From Arenicellales bacterium (lineage in GTDB: Bacteria; Pseudomonadota; Gammaproteobacteria; Arenicellales; JAJDZL01), in assembly GCA_965200765.1 (NCBI GenBank), contig OZ241380.1, positions 1,106,417 to 1,170,416 of the forward strand: a stretch of DNA of 64,000 bases, given 5' to 3'. Positions 12,518 through 32,135 of this stretch are shown here, piece by piece. The notes under the pieces were generated by a model, which ran no database searches, was not told the DNA's origin, and saw only the letters and a list, made by a program, of their open reading frames with translations. The translations under genes and the position numbers were made by a program. How positions within the stretch are numbered: the stretch's first letter is position 1; each line of letters opens with the position of its first letter.

Positions 12518-13582
12518 ATGGATTTCTGCATTCAGCTCTCCGCATACTATCCAAGCCACGAACTGGGCGGAAAGCAATTGTACAGCAATATGCTGGAGCA
12601 GGCGGTTCTGGCTGACCAGGTTGGTTTTGAATCGGTGTCCTGTACCGAGCATCACCTTATCAATATTCTGCTGATGCCAGCACCTTTGCAGTTTGCTGTC
12701 AGGATTGCCAGCATGACAGACCGCGTCAAAATCATAACGACTGTGGTTGTGCTTCCGCTTCACGACATGCGAGTCTATGCCGGCGAGGTCATTTGCGCGG
12801 ACATTTTTACCGAAGGCCGCCTGTTGCTCGGGGTTGGTCGCGGTGCATTTGAATTTGAAATGGACCGGCTGGGTGTACCTTTGGAAAACACCAGAGAAAA
12901 ATTTGACGAGTCTTTAAATGTATTGCAAGCGTTGCTGTCTCGGCGGGAGGTTTCCTGGGACGGTCAGTACTACAATTTCCCACCGCTTACGGTGATGCCC
13001 AGACCGACAAAATCCGGCGGACCACCGATCATGATGAGTGCGATCGTGCCAGAAGCAATCTATCATAGTGCCAAACGCGGCTTCCATATTCAAACAACAC
13101 CATTGTCAGGCTCGCACGAGCATATGTTGAAGCAAGTTGATGCTTTCCAGCGAGGAAAACAAGAGCTGGGGTGCGAAGGAGAGGCTTTGACTCTTTCGAT
13201 GTCAAGAGTTGCGTTTGTTGCCAGAAACGATGCTGACAAAAAACAGAAAACCGAACTGGCGCATCACTACTACGGACAATTCGACAATGTTTTTACCGGT
13301 GATGGCATAGTGAATGACGGCATCATTGTACCCATTCCGCGCAAAGTTCCGATTGAAGAAACAGCAAAGAATCTGCACATCTGCACAGCTTCCGAAATGG
13401 TTGACCAATTGGCACCGTATGCAGAAGCCGGTGTAAACCGTTTCATTCTCAATGTCAATTTCGGTGCCGACCAGATTGATACACTGGAGTGCATCGAGCG
13501 TTTCGCAACTGAAGTGATGCCCGAGTTTTCAGAAACACCCGCGAATCAGGTTTCACCTGGTACTGATATTGCTTCGAAATGA
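12518..13582 (+). CDS. LLM-class (luciferase-like) flavin-dependent oxidoreductase
   Basis: The TIM-barrel LLM pattern begins at MDFCIQLSAYYP (GFESVSCTEHH, LLLGVGRG). The ORF-track start at 12353 adds 55 non-homologous residues, so the ATG at 12518 is preferred. Confidence 0.75.
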   Translation: MDFCIQLSAYYPSHELGGKQLYSNMLEQAVLADQVGFESVSCTEHHLINILLMPAPLQFAVRIASMTDRVKIITTVVVLPLHDMRVYAGEVICADIFTEGRLLLGVGRGAFEFEMDRLGVPLENTREKFDESLNVLQALLSRREVSWDGQYYNFPPLTVMPRPTKSGGPPIMMSAIVPEAIYHSAKRGFHIQTTPLSGSHEHMLKQVDAFQRGKQELGCEGEALTLSMSRVAFVARNDADKKQKTELAHHYYGQFDNVFTGDGIVNDGIIVPIPRKVPIEETAKNLHICTASEMVDQLAPYAEAGVNRFILNVNFGADQIDTLECIERFATEVMPEFSETPANQVSPGTDIASK

Positions 13583-14349
13583 TTGCAAAAGGAATTTGCT
13601 TTGAGGTTGCCGGCGATGGACCGCCTTTGTACATGATTCATGGTATTGGTTCCCGCAAAACCACCTGGAATCCGCTTGTAGCTGAGCTTGCAGCGCATTT
13701 CACTTGCGTATCGTACGACTTGCGCGGACATGGAGGCAGTGATGTGTTACCCACCCCTTATTTGCTGGACGATTTGGTAAATGATTTGGAGACACTGAGG
13801 AGCCATTTGGGGCACGAACAAATTCGGATAGTGGGGCATTCTCTGGGTGGCATGATAGGGCCAGCATATGCACGGGCATATTCAGACAAAGTTCACTCTC
13901 TGGTTCTACTAAGTACGGCGGCGGGACGTTCGAAAGAAGATCGCAACAAACTCAAAGTACTGACTGATTCAATGAACGAAAAGGGTGTAATGCCAGTGAT
14001 TGACACGCTGGTTCATCGCTGGTTCACCGATGGCTTCATTGCAAATCGACCCGACGCAATCGAACATCGAAAACGACAAATCGAGGAAACCCCGGAAAAT
14101 GTTTTCCTCAGTGTATTTCAAATTTATGCACAAACCGAAATGGCACCGTGGTTGAAGGAAATCAAAGGTCCTTGCCTGATCATGACAGGTGAACTGGACG
14201 GCGGTTGCCATGTAACCCTCAATCGTTTCATGCACGGTGAACTGAAAAACTCCAAGCTGGTCATATTGGACGGGTTGAAGCATTCAATCCTTGTGGAAGC
14301 TCCCGACCGAGTGCTGAAGCATGTGAAAGAATTCCTGCTTGATGAGTGA
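13579..14349 (+). CDS. Alpha/beta hydrolase (3-oxoadipate enol-lactonase-like)
   Basis: HGIGS oxyanion region and nucleophile elbow GHSLGG. C-terminal GLKHS provides the catalytic His. There is a 4-nt overlap with the upstream gene. Confidence 0.8.
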   Translation: MIAKGICFEVAGDGPPLYMIHGIGSRKTTWNPLVAELAAHFTCVSYDLRGHGGSDVLPTPYLLDDLVNDLETLRSHLGHEQIRIVGHSLGGMIGPAYARAYSDKVHSLVLLSTAAGRSKEDRNKLKVLTDSMNEKGVMPVIDTLVHRWFTDGFIANRPDAIEHRKRQIEETPENVFLSVFQIYAQTEMAPWLKEIKGPCLIMTGELDGGCHVTLNRFMHGELKNSKLVILDGLKHSILVEAPDRVLKHVKEFLLDE

Positions 14350-21803: not shown

Positions 21804-23507
21804 TCAGAACAAAAAGTATCGTTGTGCCAATGGCAGTGTTTTTTCCGGTTCTGCTGTCAGCAACTCTCCATCCGCACGAACTTCATAGGTTTGCGGGTCA
21901 ATTTCCATATTTGGCAAGTAACTGTTGTGTACCATGTTTCGTTTTGAAATTTGTCGACAGTTTTTCACTGGCGTAATTCGTTTCTGCAGACCTAGTTGCT
22001 CACCCAAATTGCGGTCAAAAGCCGCCTGAGATACAAAACTTAAACTAGTCGCACTGGGTGCGAGTCCATAGGCACCGAACATAGGCCGAAAGTGAACTGG
22101 CTGAGGAGTTGGAATTGAAGCATTTGGATCGCCCATTGCGGCGGCGGCAATCATTCCGCCCTTGATGACAATGTAAGGTCGTACACCGAAAAAAGGTGTT
22201 TCCCAAATCACCAAATCCGCCAGTTTGCCCACTTCGATTGAACCGATTTCATGAGAAATACCGTGTGCGAGGGCAGGGTTGATCGTGTATTTTGCGATAA
22301 ATCGCTTGACTCGATGATTATCATGCTCAGCGGAGTCTTCGGTCAACGTGCCGCGTTGTTTCTTTTGGCAATGTGCAACTTGCCAAGTTCGCAGAATCAC
22401 TTCACCGATACGTCCCATTGCCTGAGAGTCTGAGCCAACCATGGAAATAGCTCCCATATCATGCAAGATGCCTTCCGCCGCAATTGTTTCCGGACGAATT
22501 CGGGATTCTGCGAATGCGATGTCTTCTGCCAACTTGAAATCCAGGTGATGGCAAACCATCAGCATGTCAAGGTGTTCACTGACAGTGTTCACACTGTAAG
22601 GGAGTGTGGGGTTCGTGCTGGAAGGCAGTACGTTGCTTTCGCCGCAAGCGCGCATGATGTCGGGGGCATGTCCACCGCCGGCACCTTCGGTGTGATACAT
22701 GTGAATGTTTCGTTCTTTGAAGGCGGCGAGTGTATCTTCCAGAAAGCCCGATTCATTCAGTGTATCGGTATGCAGAGTTACCTGAATGTCGAATTCCTCG
22801 GCAACGCCAAGGCAACAGTCAATCGCAGCCGGGGTAGAACCCCAGTCTTCATGCAGTTTTAATCCAACACAGCCGGCTTCTACTTGCTCTCGCAAAGCTT
22901 CGGGTTGACTGGAATTTCCCTTGCCGGTAAATCCAAAATTCAAAGGCATGGAATCGATTGACTGGTACATACGGTGAATGTTCCATGGGCCGGGTGTGCA
23001 AGTTGTCGCTTTGGACCCGGTAGCCGGTCCGGTGCCGCCGCCGATTAGTGTGGTTGTACCAGACATGAGTGCTTCTTCGGCCAGTTGTGGGCAGATAAAA
23101 TGCACATGAGAGTCAATTGCACCGGCGGTAAGAATCTTGTTCTCACAATCAATGATTTCAGTTCCCGGTCCGATCAGCAGGTTTACACCTGATTGAGTGT
23201 TGGGGTTGCCGGCCTTTCCAATTCCGGCTATGCGTCCGTTTTGAATGCCAACATCTGCTTTGACAATTCCCCAATGGTCGATCACCAAAGCGTTGGTGAT
23301 CACTGCATCCATGACATCATCACCACAATATTGGCTCTGTGCCATGCCATCCCGAACAGTCTTGCCGCCGCCGAATTTTGTTTCTTCGCCAAATACCGTA
23401 TGGTCCTTTTCAACTTGAACCCACAAGTTCGTATCACCCAGCCGGACACAATCCCCGGTCGTGGGTCCATACATTTCTGTATAAGCAACACGATCGATTT
23501 TAGCCAT
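21804..23507 (-). CDS. ureC: Urease alpha subunit
   Basis: 567 aa with the metal-binding HVHFICPQ, the carbamylated-Lys region GLKLHEDWG, and MVCHHLD. Confidence 0.97.
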
Positions 23508-29165: not shown

Positions 29166-29514
29166 TTGGACAATTCTGGTAGTTTCACAGGATAAAAGCT
29201 TCTGTGTCTCAACACAGTATAACCGCTAACAAAGCCTTGCGGGACAAAATTCATCTTGTATTTCTCAATCACGAAATCTCTGTTGCACAACCCAGGTTTG
29301 TCCACTCGGTGCGATACTTGGCGTCGGAATTCCATTTTTGGCAGTGTTATCCAATGACAGCTTGAATCATCTGGTGCATCGGCATTGTCACAAGAACAGG
29401 TGTTGTTGTGGCATAATTTGTAGCACGCAGATTGATTTTGTTGTGCCCAGGTGCGTTCAACAGGGTCATTCAACAACTGAATCTGGTTCATTACAAATCG
29501 AGGGATTTCTATCA

Positions 29515-30282
29515 ATGCAGACGAATGGAGTTGCTGCGCTTGTAACAGGTGCAGCTTCAGGAATGGGTGAAGCAACCGCTCGGTACTTGGCGAATTCTGG
29601 TGCGAAGGTTGCTTTTTTGGACATGAACAAGGAAAAGATCGCAGTCTCTGCGAAAGAATGTAACGGTGTAGCGATTGAGTGTGATGTTACGAGCGAGAAA
29701 AGTATGGAAGAAGCGGTCGCGGTTGCCAGAGAGCATCATGGCGTTGCGCGGATTTTGATTAACTGCGCGGGGATCGCTCCGGCTGCCCGGATCGTCAATC
29801 GGGAAGGGCAGGCCATGCCACTTGCTGAATTCAAACGAGTGATTGATGTAAATTTGATTGGTACATTCAATGCAATTCGATTGATGGCGGCGGATTTGCA
29901 GAGTGCAGAGCCACTGGATGACGTGGGCGAGAAGGGCGTAATTGTAAATGTCGCGTCGGTGTCAGCTTTTGAAGGACAGGTTGGACAAGCCGCATACAGT
30001 TCGTCAAAAGGTGCGATTGTTGCATTGACGATTCAGGCGGCGCGTGAGCTTTCGAGTTCCGGAATTCGTGTAATGACTATCGCACCTGGTTTAATCGCCA
30101 CTCCCATGTTGTTCGGGATGCCGCAAGCGGTGCAAGATAGCCTTGCACTGCAAGTTCCTTTCCCCAAGCGATTGGGGAATCCTGAAGAATTTGCAGGTCT
30201 TGTGGGGCATATTCTGGAAAATCAAATGTTGAATGGCGAAGTGATTCGCCTGGATGGAGCGATTCGAATGCAACCGAAGTAG
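29515..30282 (+). CDS. SDR-family dehydrogenase (3-hydroxyacyl-CoA dehydrogenase type II-like)
   Basis: TGAASGMGEA cofactor motif, and a catalytic S...YSSSK (YxxxK). The ATG at 29515 is preferred; the ORF-track start at 29338 adds 59 Cys/His-rich junk-like residues. Confidence 0.85.
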   Translation: MQTNGVAALVTGAASGMGEATARYLANSGAKVAFLDMNKEKIAVSAKECNGVAIECDVTSEKSMEEAVAVAREHHGVARILINCAGIAPAARIVNREGQAMPLAEFKRVIDVNLIGTFNAIRLMAADLQSAEPLDDVGEKGVIVNVASVSAFEGQVGQAAYSSSKGAIVALTIQAARELSSSGIRVMTIAPGLIATPMLFGMPQAVQDSLALQVPFPKRLGNPEEFAGLVGHILENQMLNGEVIRLDGAIRMQPK

Positions 30283-30425
30283 GTTGCTAAGCGTCAAAAC
30301 CCTAATAATTCTTTCGCTTGTTTTTGCCCGTTTGTTGCATTAGAAATTGAGAATGATAAGAATTTTTGTTGTAAAGCTTTGCTTTCAAGAGCATCTTCCA
30401 CTCTGGGCATTTGTTTAACTTGAAT

Positions 30426-30821
30426 TCAAGAATGTAACTTTAATCGATTTCTTATTTTGGATTGAAGTTCGAGCACATCAAGAGATAATGGATTGTCTTG
30501 GTCTTCGGCGTATTCATTCCACAAAAATTCCAGCTCGGCTTCCAAAGTATTTTCGAGGTCAGTGCGGGTCTCGTCATAGATGTAGTGGATAAACTCACCT
30601 TCAAGTCCATAGTAGAAAGTCTTAGTGTCAAAAGTTACATCAAATTTTAAGGGCGGTTCAGCATAATAGTACTGCTCATTTATCCTCACCTTATTCACTT
30701 CAATTGGATTTTCGTCTACTGCGAGAATCTTATCTACCTTACTAATAGAAACAGGTTCGTCTCTCTTGTTGAATACAATGTCGCCATATACATGAACAGG
30801 TTTACGAAGATTGTCAAGCAA
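30426..30821 (-). CDS. Hypothetical acidic protein downstream of the DNA methyltransferase (frame B)
   Basis: 131-aa ORF from a TTG start. The same frame is open upstream to about nt 30902 without an ATG. The gene is AT-rich with an acidic C-terminal half (EAELEFLWNEYAEDQDNPLSLD). Confidence 0.45.
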   Translation of the reverse strand: MLDNLRKPVHVYGDIVFNKRDEPVSISKVDKILAVDENPIEVNKVRINEQYYYAEPPLKFDVTFDTKTFYYGLEGEFIHYIYDETRTDLENTLEAELEFLWNEYAEDQDNPLSLDVLELQSKIRNRLKLHS

Positions 30822-30982
30822 AATCGGTTTGATATTTTGAACACTCGAGTAGCAGGCAACAGGTGGTGACCAGATATTAGCCTGATTTGAATTTCTTCTT
30901 TTTCAACATCAATTCTATTCAAGAAGCCTGTTATGTGGTAAGGCTTACAATCACTTACGAATGCAATGGTATTTTTGATCAT
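30734..30982 (-). CDS. Short ORF (frame A) starting 13 nt after the methyltransferase stop; possible 5' part of a frameshifted gene
   Basis: ATG-initiated 82-aa ORF. Its first ~27 residues look protein-like (MIKNTIAFVSDCKPYHITGFLNRIDVE) and its tail looks like out-of-frame junk (FCLTIFVNLFMYMATLY). It overlaps frame B by about 90-170 nt. Confidence 0.3.
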   Translation of the reverse strand: MIKNTIAFVSDCKPYHITGFLNRIDVEKEEIQIRLISGHHLLPATRVFKISNRFCLTIFVNLFMYMATLYSTRETNLFLLVR

Positions 30983-30994
30983 TAAAGCAGACTC

Positions 30995-31885
30995 CTAATT
31001 AAATAGTGTTGGTTGAAGTTTATCAGGTACTGAAACTGGCGCATATTCAAATGTATTTGATGGCCAAATACGTTCTAAATTATCTGTGTAAAAGTAATCA
31101 CTTTGATAACGATCTATGTGATCAGATTTACGAAAGGAGTTTAATCTGTTTTCGATTAACTCAAAATTCAATGGATCTTTCTCTATCCCGATAACATATC
31201 GGTCGAGTTGACTTGCTACTGATAATGTAGTCCCTGTTCCAGCGAATGGATCAAATATGCAGTCCCCAGGTAAAGATGAAGTAAGAATAATTCTCAACAG
31301 CAATGCAATAGGAGATTGCTGTTTGTGTGCTCGTTCACCAGAATGCGTACGTAAAGCTTCATCACCGGCAAAATACCCTGAGGTCAACTCTCTGATGTCG
31401 TCCCAAACGTCATTTACACAAACCCCTTTTGTTCTGGGCGTGTATCCATGTGGAAGTGGAGGATTGATTCGCAAACGATTGAACACTGAAGGGGGACTGC
31501 CTTTTGTTGCATAAACAATAATTTGATATGCTTTGCCGTAACGATGGATGCCAGGTACAATAGATGTTTTCTTTTTCCATATTATTAGGTTCTGAAACGT
31601 CCATCCAGATTTTCTTAATGTTTCAAGTACACGCTCTGAATTCTTTTCTCTCTGCATGAAGTATATTGCTGCACCAGTGGCAGAGTGCTTAAAAATACCC
31701 TCTGATATGTTCAACATCCATTCCCAATATTGATCATCGTTCATTTGATCATCATGGTTTCGATAGTCTTTGCCTTGATTGAACGGCGGGTCAAGAAAAG
31801 AGACATTGAATTCGGGCACGTCCAGTTCTTCGCTTGATAACCATTTCGAGCAATCAGTACAGATTAATTTATGTTTATTAGACAT
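30995..31885 (-). CDS. Beta-class DNA methyltransferase (N6-adenine or N4-cytosine; N6_N4_Mtase family)
   Basis: Catalytic motif IV DPPF (SFLDPPFNQG) lies N-terminal to AdoMet motif I (FDPFAGTGTT). This is the beta-class order typical of ParB-less type II/orphan amino-methyltransferases. Confidence 0.85.
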   Translation of the reverse strand: MSNKHKLICTDCSKWLSSEELDVPEFNVSFLDPPFNQGKDYRNHDDQMNDDQYWEWMLNISEGIFKHSATGAAIYFMQREKNSERVLETLRKSGWTFQNLIIWKKKTSIVPGIHRYGKAYQIIVYATKGSPPSVFNRLRINPPLPHGYTPRTKGVCVNDVWDDIRELTSGYFAGDEALRTHSGERAHKQQSPIALLLRIILTSSLPGDCIFDPFAGTGTTLSVASQLDRYVIGIEKDPLNFELIENRLNSFRKSDHIDRYQSDYFYTDNLERIWPSNTFEYAPVSVPDKLQPTLFN

Positions 31886-32135
31886 TTTGGTAATATTTGA
31901 GTATTGATGTTACAATTCTAACCCAAATTCAATTTTACGTACCTGCAAAGATAACAGGCCAAGAAAGATTTCCACCATGAGCAGAAAGAAATATAACCCC
32001 AAAACCGCGAAATGTCAACTGTGATGTCTTCAATTCAAAGAATTGCCGACGAGAAAAAGTGAAATACTTACACTACCTTCCTTTGCGAAGCGAATATTTG
32101 AAAGATTAAGTAGTCAAGTAAAATTCCACACTGGA

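Follow-up and report, generated by a model that had tools for sequence, protein, structure and literature searches.

We describe an AT-rich islet at positions 30283-32135 of a 64,000-nucleotide (nt) stretch of contig OZ241380.1 (the whole stretch is referred to here as the window), in which a DNA methyltransferase (methylase) gene is followed by a small partner gene. Our preferred explanation, which we regard as probable, is that the methylase became solitary after loss of a PD-ExK endonuclease and that it now lies beside an unrelated, recently frameshifted gene for an OB-like domain of a HicA-associated protein family. The islet would then be what stably remains of a Type II restriction-modification (R-M) module that was acquired horizontally and has lost its endonuclease, and restriction activity would not be expected from the locus. 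A preliminary description of this DNA had proposed a possible minimal or novel R-M module, in which the small gene encoded a very small or novel restriction endonuclease, a decayed endonuclease or a non-nuclease effector.

The methylase is an intact member of the beta class of N6/N4 DNA methyltransferases (Table 1). Its translation contains DPPF at residues 32-35 and FDPFAGTGTT at residues 211-220, including FAGTG at residues 214-218. Motif IV precedes motif I, which is the order of the beta class and can be read directly from the sequence; this order, together with the matches to PF01555 and to the PADLOC model MTase_II, confirms the class that had been assigned earlier from DPPF...FDPFAGTGTT. 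Relatives among Protein Data Bank (PDB) sequences are CcrM, M.MboIIA, DpnA and N4C methylases, and the methylated base would probably be N6-adenine, judging from the DPPF motif. The protein is 98% identical to its orthologue in locus L001 and belongs to a very large family (>3,700 matches at E values up to 1e-10, many of them ~60% identical). A promoter-like site is present upstream of its start codon. The TTGACA hexamer of this site and the surrounding block are kept in the orthologous loci L001, L002, L008 and L009, and the remaining spacer is variable. We infer that the conserved site functions as a promoter, from which the solitary methylase would be expressed. The upstream spacer is ~370 nt longer in L002 (6449-7066), L008 (3875-4500) and L009 (6448-7066), where it bears short opposite-strand open reading frames (ORFs) of 39-62 aa that occur neither in the window nor in L001. 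This longer spacer may be the remnant of another lost gene.

Close relatives of the methylase are accompanied by a different gene from the one found in the window. A 76%-identical methylase in L020, an Arenicellales metagenome-assembled genome (MAG) chromosome, and a 65%-identical methylase in L021 are each followed by a homologous protein of 283-296 aa with the sequence FPD...GGEFIE(L/M)K, a PD-ExK signature, and these two downstream proteins are 40% identical to each other. In a survey of the methylase family, 80 metagenome loci were searched with a hidden Markov model (HMM) of this ~277-aa protein, and 68 of them could be assessed. The ~277-aa gene, with its PD-ExK motif (FPD...GGELIELK), lies directly downstream of the methylase in 50 of the 68 (~74%). 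The loci that lack it have mutually unrelated neighbors, including other methylases, a serine recombinase and PrmC. In the alignment of the ~277-aa family, FPD, GGE..E.K and FNST.P show little or no variation. No match to this family was found in Pfam, NCBIfam, PADLOC or PDB sequences, or in PLSDB plasmids by tblastn. Judging from its motif and its adjacency to the methylase, the family is probably an unannotated group of Type II restriction endonucleases and presumably provides the cognate restriction enzyme of the methylase.

Neither tblastn nor the HMM detected the ~277-aa family in the window or in the orthologous loci L001-L010. Since the usual PD-ExK gene of its family has left no trace, the window methylase is considered solitary; it is the survivor of a Type II R-M module, and such loss recurs in the methylase family. 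A remnant of the endonuclease gene within the islet was considered as well and was rejected on the same searches. The earlier suggestion of a decayed endonuclease that left an orphan methylase therefore holds for the methylase and fails for the adjoining gene, which is unrelated to the endonuclease gene even though it occupies the usual endonuclease slot. In comparison with Type II R-M systems of the PF01555 type (M.RsrI, M.MboIIA and M.PvuII with their endonucleases), the window methylase shares the fold family, motif order and size, and its close relatives precede the PD-ExK-motif protein with genes that overlap or abut. The window locus has the S-adenosylmethionine-dependent methyltransferase with motifs IV and I of such systems but differs from them in having no adjacent cognate endonuclease gene, whole or remnant.

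The methylase has functional analogues among the solitary methylases from R-M systems, such as YhdJ of E. coli, CcrM and Dam. It shares with them an intact ORF without an endonuclease, a fixed chromosomal position across related lineages and purifying selection, and it differs in that it sits in an AT-rich islet rather than in the core genome. In NCBIfam, it scores best against the YhdJ-type model PRK11524 (98 bits versus a cut-off of 292 bits), and the protein falls below the cut-off for membership in either the YhdJ or the CcrM equivalogs. The methylase would have been retained by selection in a gammaproteobacterial clade that is probably related to the Arenicellales.

Profile comparisons identify the partner as the stand-alone C-terminal domain of a ~355-aa HicA-associated family; this domain is predicted to consist of an OB-like beta-barrel, a beta-sheet and two helices. 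An exhaustive HMMER search with a profile of the short form (the partner and its full-length homologues of similar size) recovered 481 clusters at 50% identity. A typical cluster member has 350-360 aa (the long form), and the region homologous to the partner is at its C-terminus, at residues ~180-350. Alignment of the short and long profiles with hhalign gave a probability of 100% and an E value of 1e-43 over long-form columns 176-351, and the long-form HMM matched the window partner ORF at E 5e-40. The N-terminal domain of ~175 aa is absent from the 185-aa partner, and no coding sequence for it was found upstream of the partner, where the methylase stop codon is 12 nt away (a gap of 13 nt had been given previously). 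Neither the split ORFs nor the intact orthologue P0001 matched Pfam, NCBIfam, PADLOC or PHROGs, apart from a chance-level match to TIGR02574 (E 0.05), and a PDB sequence search with the partner profile returned nothing meaningful. The ~355-aa proteins belong to no Pfam family and are hypothetical in their sources. A structural comparison with BFVD matched the long form to uncharacterised proteins of Leptospira phage LE1 (E 8e-9) and a myovirus; searches of plasmid and phage records with the long form gave one weak plasmid match and no phage match.

The AlphaFold2 (AF2) model of the long form, built from an 88-sequence alignment, has a predicted local distance difference test (pLDDT) score of 93.5 and shows an alpha/beta N-domain followed by a C-domain that combines a beta-barrel with additional beta-strands and a pair of long helices. 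In the short-form model (9 sequences; pLDDT 66.7), the elements come in the same order as in the long-form C-domain. For both models, the top Foldseek matches in the PDB were consistently OB folds, with probabilities of ~0.99-1.0 over 80-90 columns and with all E values above 1e-3; they comprise aminoacyl-tRNA synthetase anticodon domains, Ten1/Stn1, CspA, IF1, RPA and exosome S1 caps. No nuclease fold was among the PDB matches of either model, so that structure prediction followed by Foldseek, which had been put forward as a check for a novel endonuclease, did not reveal one. Two features reported in the preliminary description were seen again: the C-terminal half of the partner is visibly acidic in sequence, and no PD-(D/E)xK, HNH or GIY-YIG motif was recognised in it. 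The stand-alone domain would most likely bind nucleic acid or a HicA-like protein, independently of the methylase.

The closest relatives of the window's short form (~50% identity) belong to a second clade and lie between a TRAP transporter (DctPQM) and thyA on Arenicellales-like contigs, as two or three tandem copies, and no methylase adjoins the short forms in any of these loci. The tandem copies of L006 adjoin a long form with its HicA-like gene, and those of L003 and L004 are found without such a pair. Duplication of the long-form C-domain thus seems to generate short forms, which then persist alone. One tandem copy, P0009, has an extra N-terminal extension of ~45 aa, and a sequence like this extension is present as a separate small ORF in L003 (6618-6842). 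P0011 (275 aa) carries the C-domain of the partner family, and its N-terminal ~50 residues resemble the N-terminus of a separate 185-aa ORF (13339-13896) located ~3 kb downstream of the long form in L011, an Arenicellales MAG. This resemblance suggests that N-terminal modules have been shuffled in the partner family.

In the window, the partner gene is broken. What had been listed as a small gene or genes is one gene, and its two overlapping ORFs are not separate genes but the products of a 1-nt deletion that splits 185 codons (Table 1). Together, both ORFs match single intact metagenome proteins of 185-231 aa, and when the missing base is put back, a complete 185-aa ORF with no other lesion and 95% identity to the L001 orthologue is obtained. 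Over 16.5 kb, identity between the window and L001 is 97.0%, and 11 indels separate them. Non-coding DNA, which makes up ~10% of the region, holds ten of these, and the partner frameshift is the sole coding indel. This assembly therefore seems to contain few random indel errors, and the frameshift is probably a genuine and very recent mutation by which the partner would just have been inactivated. Programmed frameshifting at the break was rejected, as the site lacks a slippery heptamer and every homologue is read in a single frame. The frameshift could instead be an assembly or sequencing error, in which case the partner would be intact and functional here and the remainder of our explanation would be unchanged. 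The ease with which one restored base yields an undamaged ORF is what an error would produce; in addition, the intact form is represented by an 18-member cluster at 90% identity, and the ratio of nonsynonymous to synonymous substitution rates (dN/dS) of the partner between the window and L001 is 0.32, with no long-term relaxation. We nevertheless consider an error unlikely, given that the other ten indels are all non-coding and that the deletion is in a GG dinucleotide, not in a long homopolymer.

The methylase and an intact partner of 185-192 aa are found at the same site in L001, L002, L007/L008 and L009/L010. The gene order is PhaC, MaoC, acyl-CoA synthetase, DsbA-like, the islet, short-chain dehydrogenase, DUF1989 and ETF-QO, and the islet is present at the DsbA-like/dehydrogenase site in at least five lineages. 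It is AT-rich in all orthologous loci (34-41% G+C versus 47-49% in the flanks). Purifying selection acts on both genes: among sister lineages with synonymous divergence (dS) of up to ~0.65, the methylase has a dN/dS of 0.07-0.18 and the partner one of 0.22-0.32. The islet is an old one that has been transmitted vertically. The adjacency of partner and methylase goes back to a single event, and all instances of it are orthologous and lie within a region that is collinear anyway. Because one vertically inherited event in a collinear region accounts for it, the conservation of this adjacency says little about functional coupling. The partner family was found in none of the 80 surveyed loci of the methylase family (0/80). 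Homologues of the partner are thus essentially not found next to methyltransferases elsewhere, an outcome that the preliminary description had itself named as counting against an R-M module. In one sister lineage, represented by L009 (8746-10998) and L010 (3942-5130), the stretch between the partner and the dehydrogenase has received a GmrSD_N/HNH gene and a gene for an EcoRI-like methylase. Because these genes have been inserted beside the pair, the islet site behaves as a small hotspot for defense genes, with repeated uptake.

Base composition sets the islet apart from its surroundings. Its G+C content is 37.6% versus 47.4% for the whole window, which is the lowest value among segments of the same length taken in 50-nt steps (mean 47.3%, standard deviation [SD] 1.9%) and ~5 SD below the mean. 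In 200-nt segments, G+C is 31.5-47.5% within the islet and 44-52% in the flanks. The profile of the whole window thus contains the local dip on which the argument for horizontal acquisition had been made to depend, and the islet is its minimum, which supports a foreign base composition; the figures first given by hand count (33-35% inside and 45-60% outside) were too extreme. As in the preliminary description, no integrase or transposase was found in the window as a sign of a mobile element, nor was a tRNA, and no direct or inverted repeats flank the islet.

The genomic context of the long form was examined by looking up three full-length proteins, which gave eight loci (L012-L019). In all eight, and also in L006 and L011, the long-form gene (~360 aa) is followed by an overlapping gene of 94-97 aa, and this overlap suggests translational coupling. 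The small proteins align to the whole Pfam HicA_toxin profile at sub-threshold scores (E 8e-5, 6e-4 and 0.09) and match phrog_353 "toxin" at E 2e-6. The surroundings of L012-L019 are defense islands with type I R-M genes, DEAD/MZB helicases, GmrSD, Fic and KilA-N. We infer that the long form and the HicA-like gene are a type II toxin-antitoxin-like or defense module, in which the large protein takes the place of the antitoxin. The full-length protein would most plausibly act as an antitoxin-like or sensor partner of the HicA-like toxin. In canonical hicAB, the toxin gene comes first, and the HicB antitoxin combines a partial RNase H-like fold with a helix-turn-helix or ribbon-helix-helix domain. 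The long forms, in contrast, lie immediately upstream of the small HicA-like gene and overlap it, which is the antitoxin-then-toxin layout of most type II systems, and they are built differently from two domains, of which the C-domain is OB-like, and do not match HicB. The window differs further in having only the C-domain of the long form and no HicA-like gene: an HMM of the small gene found none in six-frame translations of the window, L001-L005 and L007-L010, so that the overlapping downstream gene typical of the ~355-aa family is missing.

A further comparison is possible with protein A of the PADLOC system PDC-M32, which the long forms match weakly and collinearly (E 1.6e-4 to 0.01, over approximately positions 11-265 of 376). 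These matches are marginal. No PADLOC model is hit by the small HicA-like genes or by the short form of the window, and the window proteins match neither the PDC-M32A nor the PDC-M32B profile. PDC-M32 is an uncharacterised two-gene phage-defense candidate reported in prophages and mentioned only as hypothetical (PMC12429752). A literature search returned nothing on DUF7946 or on an OB-fold partner of HicA.

Several observations weigh against a solitary methylase beside an unrelated gene. The pair is co-oriented, 12 nt apart and has been kept together over a dS of ~0.65; both genes are similarly AT-rich, which fits a co-acquired functional pair too; and the partner is in the exact endonuclease slot, where functional replacement is possible rather than coincidence. 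The supporting assignments also have their limits, in that the nuclease assignment of the ~277-aa family comes down to a motif and adjacency to the methylase, the antitoxin-like role of the long form is read from gene order and overlap only, and every OB-fold call is weaker than a Foldseek E value of 1e-3. These points leave room for a novel module of two genes. The restriction enzyme would have given way to an effector other than a nuclease, such as a protein that binds DNA or RNA and detects nucleic acid lacking methylation, and this effector would rely on the methylase for self-protection. Such a module would account for the shared strand and the spacing of 12-115 nt, for the canonical endonuclease position of the partner, for purifying selection on both genes and for a site that draws other defense genes (GmrSD/HNH and the EcoRI-like methylase of L009 and L010). 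A broken effector next to an intact methylase is, moreover, the order of loss expected for R-M-like modules. We nonetheless judge it doubtful, because the association is one evolutionary instance whose adjacencies are all orthologous in a collinear region, the partner family occurs elsewhere without methylases and in none of the 80 methylase loci, and neither a catalytic motif nor a nuclease fold was found. The non-nuclease effector of the preliminary description may yet be correct, but nothing positive indicates that the two genes act together.

It is also conceivable, at a similarly low level of probability, that the OB-like domain derives from an antitoxin-like protein, is still functional and has been recruited into the slot left by the restriction enzyme. 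It may then be either a non-nuclease effector linked to methylation or a free-standing decoy that neutralises the HicA-like toxins of invaders. By far the least credible proposal is that the methylase has its cognate restriction endonuclease in the partner, which would then be a very small or novel one. The partner gene is downstream of the methylase and many restriction enzymes have no detectable family, but the partner is homologous to a domain of a family usually paired with a HicA-like gene, its structural matches are OB folds only, and its family is found as tandem copies without methylases. The missing nuclease motifs and the absence of the partner from the 80 methylase loci count against it as well, and another, well-conserved PD-ExK protein already accompanies the methylase family. 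The solitary methylase beside an unrelated OB-like domain gene remains our preferred explanation.

Table 1. Coordinates and supporting evidence for features of the islet and of related loci (positions refer to the window unless a locus is named)
Feature	Position or count	Strand	Evidence or remarks
Beta-class N6/N4 DNA methyltransferase, intact, 296 aa	30995-31885	-	PF01555 E 1e-34; PADLOC MTase_II E 8e-33
Promoter-like site TTGACA, 17 nt, TATATT; 11/12 matches	31990-32018	-	Consensus scan; ~105 nt upstream of methylase start codon
Frameshifted partner gene, 185 codons	30426-30982	-	Own GGAG ribosome-binding site overlapping methylase stop codon
Partner ORF, 82 aa	30734-30982	-	
Partner ORF, 131 aa	30426-30821	-	
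1-nt deletion, GG to G (CACCTGGTTGCC in relatives, CACCTGTTGCC in window)	30859-30861 (about)	-	DNA alignment, blastn indel list
AT-rich spacer, 35% G+C	31886-32135	.	DsbA-like gene to methylase; length differs among relatives
AT-rich spacer, 35% G+C	30283-30425	.	Partner gene to convergent short-chain dehydrogenase gene
PD-ExK-motif protein downstream of methylase	L020 8944-9795; L021 6907-7797; ~50 of L022-L101		
~277-aa gene full-length directly downstream	35/68 loci		
~277-aa gene cut by contig end	9/68 loci		
~277-aa gene split or shortened	6/68 loci		
~277-aa gene missing	18/68 loci		>=900 nt downstream sequence present
Long form and small gene unit	L012 6001-7366; L006 1511-2876; L011 18571-19984		
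Tandem short-form copies	L003 7230-8585; L004 4644-5779; L006 2982-4372		2-3 copies, 88-94% identical, plus decayed copies

Other features of the window were recorded as well. In the spacer between the partner and the short-chain dehydrogenase gene, neither a convincing terminator nor a HicA-like ORF was found. The mechanical ORF of the dehydrogenase (29338-30282, plus strand) has a TTG start and 314 aa; because its annotated orthologues have 255 aa, translation probably begins near 29515. The only Rfam match of the window at the gathering threshold is 5_ureB_sRNA (81 bits; 23072-23359, plus strand), which overlaps the 5' part of the gene for the large urease subunit in antisense orientation and is most likely explained by conserved urease coding sequence, not by a demonstrated small RNA.

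The main consequence for the window itself is a correction of the earlier view: it contains no novel minimal R-M system, but a methylase from a widespread family, now an orphan, and a neighbor gene that was broken only recently. Two by-products, both largely outside the window and neither of which settles a long-standing question, may be of use to annotators and defense researchers. One is the ~277-aa PD-ExK-motif family, the partner of the methylase in dozens of metagenome loci, and the other is a widespread uncharacterised ~355-aa protein with an overlapping, diverged HicA-like gene, whose C-terminal domain circulates alone. If the OB-like domain was indeed recruited into the slot of the restriction enzyme, the long form and its HicA-like gene would be an undescribed toxin-antitoxin or defense system, and the islet would show modular re-use of one of its domains.

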